Below, in pieces: positions 5,282-6,459 of a DNA stretch of 13,122 bases. This DNA is from a virus. Taxonomy: Duplodnaviria; Heunggongvirae; Uroviricota; Caudoviricetes. Every line of letters starts with the position of its first letter. Position 1 is the first letter of the stretch. A program made the translations under genes and the position numbers. The notes beneath the pieces were generated by a model. It made no database searches, had not been told where the DNA came from, and saw nothing but the letters and a program-made list of their open reading frames with translations. The stretch lies in IMG/VR virus record IMGVR_UViG_2526164662_000025; one strand, written 5' to 3'.

Positions 5282-5593
5282 ATGAACAAGAAAACCAAAC
5301 GAACCTTCACCCCTGAGTTCAGGCTGGAATGTGCACAGCTGATTGTTGATAAGGGCTACTCATATCGACAGGCCAGTGAAGCGATGAATGTCGGTTCAAC
5401 CACGCTTGAGAGCTGGGTACGCCAGCTCAGGCGAGAGCGCCAGGGTATTACGCCCTCTGCCACACCCATTACTCCAGACCAGCAACGTATCCGCGAGCTG
5501 GAAAAGCAAGTTCGCCGTCTGGAGGAACAAAATACGATATTAAAAAAGGCTACCGCGCTCTTAATGTCCGACTCGCTGAACGGTTCACGATAG
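5282..5593 (+). CDS. IS3-family transposase OrfA (helix-turn-helix and leucine-zipper DNA-binding subunit), 103 aa
   Basis: ATG at 5282 preceded by a purine-rich candidate RBS (aacAGGTGActtaATG), TAG stop at 5591..5593. Sequence resembles IS911/IS3-group OrfA. The ORF-track start at 5246 is probably too far upstream. Confidence 0.9.
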
Positions 5594-6459
5594 CCGCCAG
5601 ACTAAGTGACAGCCACACGGTTGTCAGCCTGTGTTCTGCTCTGGAAATACACCGCAGCAGTTACCGGTACTGGCGAAAACGACGCGATACGGTTAATCCG
5701 GCACGAGTCAGGTTGTGCAGCGAAATACGCCGGGCGTGGAACCAAAGTCGGGGCTCTGCGGGCGCGCGCACTCTGGCTGAAATGCTGACTCAAAACGGCG
5801 TCCCGATGAGCCGTTACCGTGCCGGACGTCTGATGAAATATCTGAACCTGAGCAGTTGTCAGCCCGGAAAACATCAGTATAAAAATGCCCGTCAGGAGCA
5901 TACCAGCCTGCCGAATCTGCTTGAGCGTCAGTTCGCAGTACCGGAGCCAGACCGGGTATGGTGTGGAGATATTACGTATCTCTGGGCAGGAAATCGCTGG
6001 TGCTATCTGGCGGTTGTTATGGATCTTTTTGCCCGCAGGGTTATCGGCTGGAGTCTGTCAGCGCATGCCGATACCGCACTGATAAGCAGTGCCCTGCGGA
6101 TGGCCTATGAGACGCGTGGCCAACCCCGGGATGTCGTGTTCCATAGCGACCAGGGAAGCCAGTATACAGGCCTTAAATATCAACAACTTCTCTGGCGTTG
6201 CAGAATAAATCAAAGCGTCAGTCGGCGGGGAAACTGCTGGGATAACAGCCCCATGGAACGCTTCTTCCGCAGTCTGAAAACAGAATGGGTGCCAACGAAT
6301 GGTTACGCAGGCAAGGACGAGGCCCGGCAGCAAATTAATGATTACATATTGAACTACTACAACAGCGTCAGACCTCACCATTATAACGGTGGGCTGACGC
6401 CGGAAGAGTCAGAGAACAGATACCATTTTTACTGTAAAACCGTGGCCAATATTACTTGA
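5539..6459 (+). CDS. IS3-family transposase OrfB / catalytic DDE domain, expressed mainly as the OrfAB fusion by -1 frameshifting. The frame is open 5410..6459 and contains no ATG upstream of the slip site.
   Basis: DDE signature residues in context: [41 protein letters not shown] stop at 6457..6459 lies inside the right inverted repeat. Confidence 0.85.
5542..5548 (+). promoter_or_regulatory. -1 programmed ribosomal frameshift site A AAA AAG that generates the OrfAB transposase
   Basis: In the orfA frame the sequence reads ATA TTA AAA AAG GCT. The -1 frame is open from here to 6459. An in-frame ATT lies just upstream at 5539..5541 and GGAGGA at 5521..5526, an arrangement I recall for IS911 (AUU-initiated OrfB and an upstream SD-like frameshift stimulator). 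Confidence 0.8.

Follow-up and report, generated by a model that had tools for sequence, protein, structure and literature searches.

An insertion sequence in a prophage tail gene

The window, by which we mean the whole stretch of DNA analysed (13,122 nucleotides), corresponds to the block of morphogenesis genes in a lambdoid E. coli prophage. The block lies on the minus strand and carries genes for terminase, portal, protease, decoration and capsid proteins, along with FI, FII, Z, U, V, G, T and the tape measure. One of its genes, encoding a tail terminator like gpU of lambda, is interrupted. By translation of the minus strand, its N-terminal 106 codons lie at 6468-6785, while the C-terminal 26 codons and the stop lie at 5129-5209. 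Between the two halves, on the plus strand at 5210-6467, is a complete insertion sequence (IS) of 1258 bp, which belongs to the IS3 family, is ISEc31-like and is a relative of IS911. Its ends are imperfect inverted repeats of the TG...CA type (TGTAGTGG...TTGGCCAC). The left repeat, IRL (5210-5235, plus strand), reads TGTAGTGGCACACTAAATTTGGCCAC and matches the right repeat at positions 1-8 and 19-26; the right repeat, IRR (6442-6467, minus strand), reads TGTAGTGGTCAAGTAATATTGGCCAC inward. The flanking DNA reads ...CATAGCC before the element and GCCCTGCG after it, so that the 3-bp target site GCC is duplicated, with its left copy at 5207-5209 and its right copy at 6468-6470 (a duplication to which no strand is assigned).

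When the IS and one GCC are excised in silico, a gpU-like open reading frame of 131 aa is restored. The same prophage region is present in E. coli strain UTME-12, where the 131-aa gene is intact, the IS is absent and the unoccupied site carries a single GCC (CATAGCCCTGCG). Strain OkiPb01717, on the other hand, has the same insertion at the same locus, with transposase WP_085968792.1. There, the PGAP annotation gives two gpU pseudogene halves around an "IS3 family transposase, programmed frameshift", and under this description the frameshift site is already annotated in RefSeq. Sister prophages carry the target gene without interruption, and the insertion is therefore recent. Because the IS has knocked out the tail-terminator gene gpU, the prophage carrying it is unlikely to make infectious particles.

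The element has two overlapping open reading frames, a DDE domain plus K, TG...CA repeats, a short target duplication and a helix-turn-helix (HTH) in OrfA, which are the features by which the IS3 family is recognised. On sequence grounds it is of a known kind, an ISEc31-like member of that family and a relative of IS911. An Rfam scan of the IS matched no frameshift-element family. The sole real Rfam match within the IS was isrC, at the 5' end of orfA.

Among named elements the nearest is ISEc31, as labelled by PGAP, at about 92-93% nucleotide identity. The two elements have the same length (1258 bp), fall in the same clade and carry an identical arrangement of GGAGGA, ATT and A6G. Like the window element, ISEc31 is without an IS911-type structure downstream of these motifs, and its transposase shares a 90% protein cluster with that of the window. 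By the ISfinder convention, isoforms have at least 95% nucleotide identity to the reference element. Full-length identity to PGAP-labelled ISEc31 copies is 92.5-92.9%, below this threshold, and this indirect comparison speaks against the window element as an isoform of ISEc31. By this comparison it is probably a separate ISfinder entity, distinct from ISEc31; the name that PGAP gives to exact copies of it is the generic "IS3 family transposase".

Overlapping frames and the transposase

The first reading frame, orfA (5282-5593, plus strand), runs from an ATG at 5282 to a TAG stop at 5591-5593 and encodes an HTH DNA-binding protein of 103 aa. The second, orfB, is in the -1 phase. This frame is open from 5410, following a stop at 5407-5409, to a TGA at 6457-6459, and the two open frames overlap at 5410-5593. 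An earlier note on this DNA, made from the sequence alone, had described the overlap as typical of IS3-family elements, and both the 0/-1 arrangement and the family matches given below bear this out. The note had also pointed to the lack of an ATG in the orfB frame upstream of the slip site. The -1 frame indeed contains no ATG from 5410 up to the heptamer, nor any GTG or TTG, and its first canonical start is a TTG at 5713.

The slippery heptamer A_AAA_AAG, the predicted site of the -1 frameshift, is at 5542-5548 on the plus strand. With orfA reading ATA TTA AAA AAG GCT across it, the 0-frame codons within the heptamer are AAA at 5543 and AAG at 5546, which confirms the X_XXY_YYZ phase. Directly 5' of the heptamer, where the note had placed it, is an ATT in the orfB (-1) frame (5539-5541, plus strand), a putative, possibly weak start for OrfB as in IS911. 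Counted from this ATT, the orfB frame (5539-6459, plus strand) comprises 306 codons and has no interrupting stop, the presence of which would have spoken against the note's reading of the region. Upstream, within the orfA codons CTG GAG GAA, is the Shine-Dalgarno-like (SD-like) sequence GGAGGA (5521-5526, plus strand), a putative signal with its pairing core GGAGG at 5521-5525. It is the single plus-strand copy of GGAGGA in the whole window. The gap from GGAGGA to the heptamer is 15 nt, or 16 nt counted from the GGAGG core, in agreement with the roughly 16 nt reported earlier, and the gap from GGAGGA or GGAGG to the ATT is 12-13 nt. In the shuffled window, 0.02 occurrences of ATTAAAAAAG are expected, and 0.03 of GGAGG-N6-17-AAAAAAG.

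A -1 shift at the heptamer would fuse the two frames into OrfAB, of 392 aa, with the junction ...ILKK|GYRAL.... The fusion built from the heptamer junction is exactly an NCBI protein, "IS3 family transposase [Escherichia coli]", and the exact 103-aa OrfA sequence is likewise already present in public protein collections. OrfA matches the Pfam families HTH_Tnp_1 (E = 8.8e-13) and HTH_28 (E = 1.7e-6), while the orfB frame matches rve (E = 3.3e-27), HTH_21 and rve_3; the NCBIfam IS3 transposase model, NF033516, scores 304 bits against a cut-off of 160. The catalytic residues of OrfAB conform to DD(35)E: D230, D290 and E326 are separated by index differences of 60 and 36, and K333 follows seven residues after E326.

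Conservation of these motifs was assessed in 66 distinct relatives, 12 of them in the window's clade and 54 outside it. The clade, which we call ISEc31-like, comprises the window element, ISEc31 and relatives in Kluyvera, Serratia, Erwinia, Mixta and Pectobacterium. The heptamer, including its terminal G, is kept in 60 of the 66, from Enterobacterales to marine Gammaproteobacteria. This bears on how the two frames are joined, as an alternative source of OrfAB would be RNA polymerase slipping on the A6 run. In bacteria, productive slippage of this kind takes place on longer runs, typically of nine or more A or T. The six-A run that such slippage would use is present in the window, and some IS3-family elements do rely on this route (PMC6211511); however, A6 is shorter than the runs typically required. 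Furthermore, the X_XXY_YYZ phase and the terminal G, kept in those 60 relatives, are what re-pairing of tRNAs requires, and the identical slip site of IS911 has been shown to frameshift ribosomally (PMC4066793, PMC8136817). We therefore regard transcriptional slippage as very improbable here.

The element is abundant. It is matched in 2416 of 5426 complete E. coli genomes, and copies at least 99% identical to it occur in 938 E. coli records, at up to 17 places per genome, with 739 on plasmids. Another population, with 1557 records at 90-95% identity, carries the PGAP label "IS3-like element ISEc31 family transposase". Among the plasmids of PLSDB, 630 match, mostly from Escherichia and also from Enterobacter, Klebsiella, Citrobacter and Salmonella. 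The phage collection yielded just two fragments of the IS, which is therefore no normal component of sequenced phages. Full-length copies with 100% identity lie at many positions on E. coli chromosomes and plasmids, under unrelated genes that include tssC, melB, trbD, a type II secretion gene and other phage genes. With identical copies at so many sites, recent activity is very likely. This dispersal would also lend indirect support to the copy-out-paste-in route through a circular intermediate by which IS3-family elements transpose.

These data allow us to weigh the idea that the copy in the window is a dead relic, in which the arrangement of motifs persists with no present function. The prophage region in which it lies does look degraded, and some relatives are broken: no G follows the heptamer in L005 and L011, and L016 is a truncated copy. 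Against this, the copy matches others, dispersed over many sites, at 100% identity across 1258 bp, its reading frames are open, its inverted repeats, target duplication and DDE residues are intact, and the intactness of the target gene in sister prophages marks the insertion as recent. A dead relic thus seems to us very improbable. The identical dispersed copies, the target duplication and the empty sister site are together strong, though indirect, evidence of recent transposition, and the element is intact and probably active, much as the earlier note had supposed in calling it intact and potentially active.

Comparison with IS911 and dnaX

Recoding in IS911 uses an SD, an AUU and the A6G motif, plus a stem-loop or three-way junction (PMC4066793, PMC5009743, PMC8136817). 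Scanning one genome per species for OrfAB gave 80 loci, among which L078 and L081 are Shigella flexneri copies of IS911 itself; their recoding region is the sequence given in Table 1 of PMC8136817. The window element and IS911 have the same -1 layout of orfA and orfB, a 3-bp target duplication and a DD(35)E transposase, and their OrfAB proteins are 56% identical over 386 aa in a gapless alignment. The IRL of IS911 (TGAAGTGGCACACTGAATTTGGCCAC; also TGnAGTGGCACACTnAATTTGGCCACCTGA) is near-identical to that of the window element. The two differ slightly in length (1258 bp in the window, about 1250 bp for IS911 of Shigella/E. coli) and in the orfA stop, which is TAG in the window element and TAA in IS911. 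At the slip site they share the core ATATT-A_AAA_AAG-GCTACCGCGCTCTT, AUU included, and ATATTAAAAAAGGCTACCGCGCTCTT is identical at 26 of 26 positions both to IS911 as printed in PMC8136817 and to the Shigella copy L081. Because the alignment is gapless and includes this identical stretch, we consider the heptamer and the AUU to be truly IS911-type.

The same cannot be said of the SD-like sequence. The aligned codons are att gaa atG GAG aat gaa ata TTA AAA AAG in IS911 and ctG GAG GAa caa aat acg ata TTA AAA AAG in the window. Thus, 11 nt separate the GGAG of IS911 from the heptamer and 8 nt separate it from the AUU, while the GGAGG of the window is two codons upstream of that position, 16 nt from the heptamer and 13 nt from the AUU. 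Where IS911 has its SD, the gapless alignment shows ACAAAAT in the window, which contains no SD. The GGAGGA that had earlier been identified with the SD of IS911 is therefore not positionally homologous to it.

This displacement matters for a stronger claim, namely that the window holds a full IS911-type cassette in which GGAGGA acts as a dual SD, for the -1 shift and for initiation at the AUU, with a 3' structure helping. The order of the elements, the heptamer and the AUU are all as in IS911, and GGAGG can pair with 5 nt of the anti-SD, compared with 4 for the GGAG of IS911. Furthermore, all 12 distinct clade sequences keep GGAGG unchanged at 15-16 nt, although the third positions of adjacent codons differ among them (cgc/cgt/cga, cag/caa, aat/aac); this weakly suggests constraint on GGAGG, the 12 sequences being closely related. 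Outside the clade the picture changes. No SD-like motif lies in range in 30 of the 54 other relatives, and in the remainder it is at 11 nt (10 sequences), at 6 nt (9 sequences) or elsewhere. The AUU is present in 12 of 12 clade sequences and in 28 of the 54 others, the other 26 reading TCT, TTT, ACT, CCT, CTT, CAT or CCA. Since the AUU is missing from so many, separate initiation of OrfB is no family-wide need; by this survey, neither the SD nor the AUU is a family-wide feature, which counts against the full cassette.

Spacing presents a further difficulty. A 13-nt distance from SD to start, combined with a non-canonical start codon, is unfavourable for initiation in E. coli. Initiation of OrfB at the AUU is thus possible, but is expected to be poor. 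As for the frameshift, the SD distance reported to stimulate -1 shifts is 9-14 nt (PMC5009743), and searches for an SD have been made in the interval 6-17 nt upstream of the motif (PMC4066793). The distance in the window, 16-17 nt, is outside the former range and at the outer limit of the latter. The GGAGG 16 nt upstream may therefore stimulate weakly, at the far edge of the reported range, or GGAGGA may merely encode Leu-Glu-Glu of the OrfA coiled-coil region.

We then consider the 3' structure. The printed sequence of IS911 folds as expected, with a base stem GCGCUCU/AGAGCGC that begins 7 nt past the motif and a pair of hairpins, of which the second carries the orfA stop in its loop. In a gapless alignment of 54 sequences, 78% of cells pair in the IS911 structure, compared with 30-49% when the 3' partners are slid, and compensatory changes are found in the base stem and in hairpin B. 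Most relatives outside the clade have a branched hairpin at this place, with a minimum free energy (MFE) of -15 to -25 kcal/mol and z-scores of -1.5 to -5. The homologous stretch of the window (5555-5611, plus strand) is by contrast degenerate: threaded onto the IS911 structure, it gives +3.4 kcal/mol, compared with -21.0 for IS911, and keeps 4 of 9 pairs in the base stem, 5 of 6 in hairpin A and 4 of 7 in hairpin B (13 of 22 in all). Ten clade sequences threaded in the same manner give +3.4 to +9.3 kcal/mol. The local MFE in the clade is no better than that of shuffled sequences (z -0.5 to +1.5; window +1.1), and in the consensus fold of the clade no compensatory pairs occur and the covariation term is positive.

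Several candidate replacements were considered and rejected. Under the hairpin rules of PMC4066793, IS911 and other relatives yield a junction of 57-61 nt with a ddG/nt of 0.12-0.19, while the single qualifying structure in the window is a branched domain of 133 nt, closed by CGCG/CGCG and beginning 6 nt after the motif. This domain has a ddG/nt of -0.007 and a closing-stem probability of 0.0, and its interior differs between clade members. Formally, it passes the same rules in 5 of 9 clade members. A long-range stem between CCGCGCUC, 5-12 nt after the motif, and GGGCGUGG, 184-191 nt after it, has a probability of about 1.0 when exactly 197 nt are folded. At other fold lengths, however, the partner jumps to 133-144, 212-220 or elsewhere, and in 5 of 9 clade members the stem is broken by GGGCAUGG with no compensation, leading us to treat it as an artefact of GC-rich sequence. 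Finally, the hairpin GACAGCC-ACAC-GGUUGUC (about 5607-5626) is stable, but it lies some 59 nt past the heptamer, too far for a conventional stimulator, and it has uncompensated mismatches in L010, L002 and L083. We conclude from these folding models that the clade no longer has an IS911-type structure and has no detectable conserved replacement.

The designation of the region as an IS911-type cassette can therefore be retained in part. It holds for the heptamer, the AUU and the 26 identical nucleotides, and does not extend to the SD, which is displaced, or to the three-way junction, which is degenerate. Taking together the position of the SD, its spacing to the heptamer and to the AUU, the loss of the junction and the distribution of both motifs among the relatives, we think it unlikely that the full cassette operates here.

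E. coli dnaX provides a second point of reference, as it has the same A_AAA_AAG heptamer and an upstream SD-like stimulator (PMC8136817 Table 1; PMC5009743). Unlike the window, dnaX combines an SD placed 10 nt upstream with a strong 3' stem-loop, and its frameshift frequency is about 45-60%. The product of its shift is a shorter protein, as opposed to the fusion transposase expected here.

Proposed recoding and its implications

Our preferred reading, which we hold to be highly probable, is that the 80 bp singled out by the earlier note (5521-5600) are the recoding region of an intact IS3-family element, in which a -1 ribosomal frameshift at A_AAA_AAG makes OrfAB. We infer both that the slippage is ribosomal and what its efficiency might be. 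Ribosomes translating orfA would reach A_AAA_AAG with two lysyl-tRNAs on AAA-AAG, and a fraction of them would move back by one base, re-pair on AAA-AAA and read on in the orfB frame, giving the 392-aa OrfAB transposase with its HTH and DDE domain. The orfB frame would be expressed mainly as the C-terminal part of this fusion. Unshifted ribosomes would stop at the TAG at 5591, making the 103-aa OrfA the default product, and a low ratio of OrfAB to OrfA would limit transposition.

In E. coli the motif A_AA.A_AA.G ranks with the most efficient for -1 shifting, and no other is as common in the IS3 family (PMC4066793). With the SD distant and no local 3' structure, slippage in the window element is probably driven mostly by this intrinsically shift-prone A6G motif. 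As both stimulators of IS911 are absent in their IS911 form, the efficiency of frameshifting could be much lower than the ∼12-13% of IS911. With respect to the origin of this arrangement, we suggest, tentatively and as something rather short of an even chance, that the ISEc31-like clade descends from an IS911-type ancestor that lost the three-way junction and in which the GGAG at -11 was replaced by a stronger GGAGG at -16.

As a textbook programmed -1 frameshift of the IS3 family, the site is of value mostly as a sanity check. Beyond this, the element occurs in bovine and STEC-type E. coli strains and plasmids and is evidently mobile. If the distant SD is the sole stimulator and also drives initiation at the AUU, then the clade would serve, in nature, as a test of how large the spacing can be, both for SD-stimulated -1 frameshifting and for the distance from SD to start. 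If the SD is inert, then an IS that is abundant and evidently mobile gets by on an A6G site with no stimulation. A successful relative of IS911 that has neither stimulator in canonical form speaks to the degree of stimulation that an A6G site requires if transposition is to proceed at a viable rate.

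Start of orfA and the isrC RNA family

Annotation of the orfA start is not uniform among relatives of the ISEc31-like element in the window (5210-6467, + strand). In ISEc31 itself and in copies that are 95% identical, PGAP places the start at an in-frame upstream GTG, yielding a 404-aa product; in exact copies of the window IS it places the start at the ATG equivalent to position 5282, yielding 392 aa. The upstream GTG is also found in the window, at 5246. We favour the ATG at 5282 over this GTG as the probable start of orfA (5282-5593), given that the sequence AGGTGA stands 5 nt 5′ of the ATG.

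An Rfam scan of the IS gave a match to RF01387, 'isrC Hfq binding RNA', at 5278-5400 (+), covering the full model (1-123) with a score of 150 bits. IsrC is described, in the available portion of the 2008 paper (PMC2330248), as a Salmonella island sRNA whose gene sits between envF and msgA, and no mention of an IS origin was found in that portion. Because the match coincides exactly with the 5′ end of orfA, the isrC family appears to be the 5′ portion of an ISEc31-like orfA transcript, or a remnant of one.

Altered slip sites in relatives

Several relatives are altered in or next to the A6G heptamer at which the window IS is expected to shift frame (A_AAA_AAG, 5542-5548). In copies from an Atlantibacter MAG (L005) and Salmonella arizonae (L011) the heptamer region reads TTAAAAAAG-CTAC, with one G absent directly after the heptamer, and orfB therefore lies at +1 rather than −1. 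Either these copies have been inactivated, or sequencing errors in the homopolymer account for the missing base. Relatives from two different hosts, Shewanella sp. KJ2020 (L051) and a Thalassolituus MAG (L056), share an in-frame insertion of ∼21 nt (..AAAAATACCCAAGGGGCACACCGAG/A GC..) that abolishes the heptamer. Two further Shewanella elements (L022 and L043) carry G_AAA_AAG, perfect only in the A_AAG tetramer, and a Photobacterium element (L040) carries A_AAA_AAA; all three are otherwise intact.

Insertions in lambdoid prophages

An identical copy of the IS lies within the head-tail joining gene of another, heavily truncated lambdoid prophage in E. coli E2863 (L001, 6985-8275). This copy is bordered by TCT on its left side and GCC on its right rather than by a 3-bp duplication, a mismatch that suggests IS-mediated deletion or recombination. 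In other strains, the prophage region of the window (relatives H32-H35 of the whole window) has further insertions of IS30 and ISEc22, and one of these relatives also holds a group II intron. This morphogenesis block is a common target of mobile elements.

In the window, the IS splits a lambda gpU-like tail-terminator gene (5129-5209 and 6468-6785, − strand; 131 aa once restored). E. coli OkiPb01717 carries the same insertion, and the gene is uninterrupted in the sister prophages of UTME-9, -10, -12 and -14. With its gpU-like gene divided in this way, the window prophage should fail to complete its tails.
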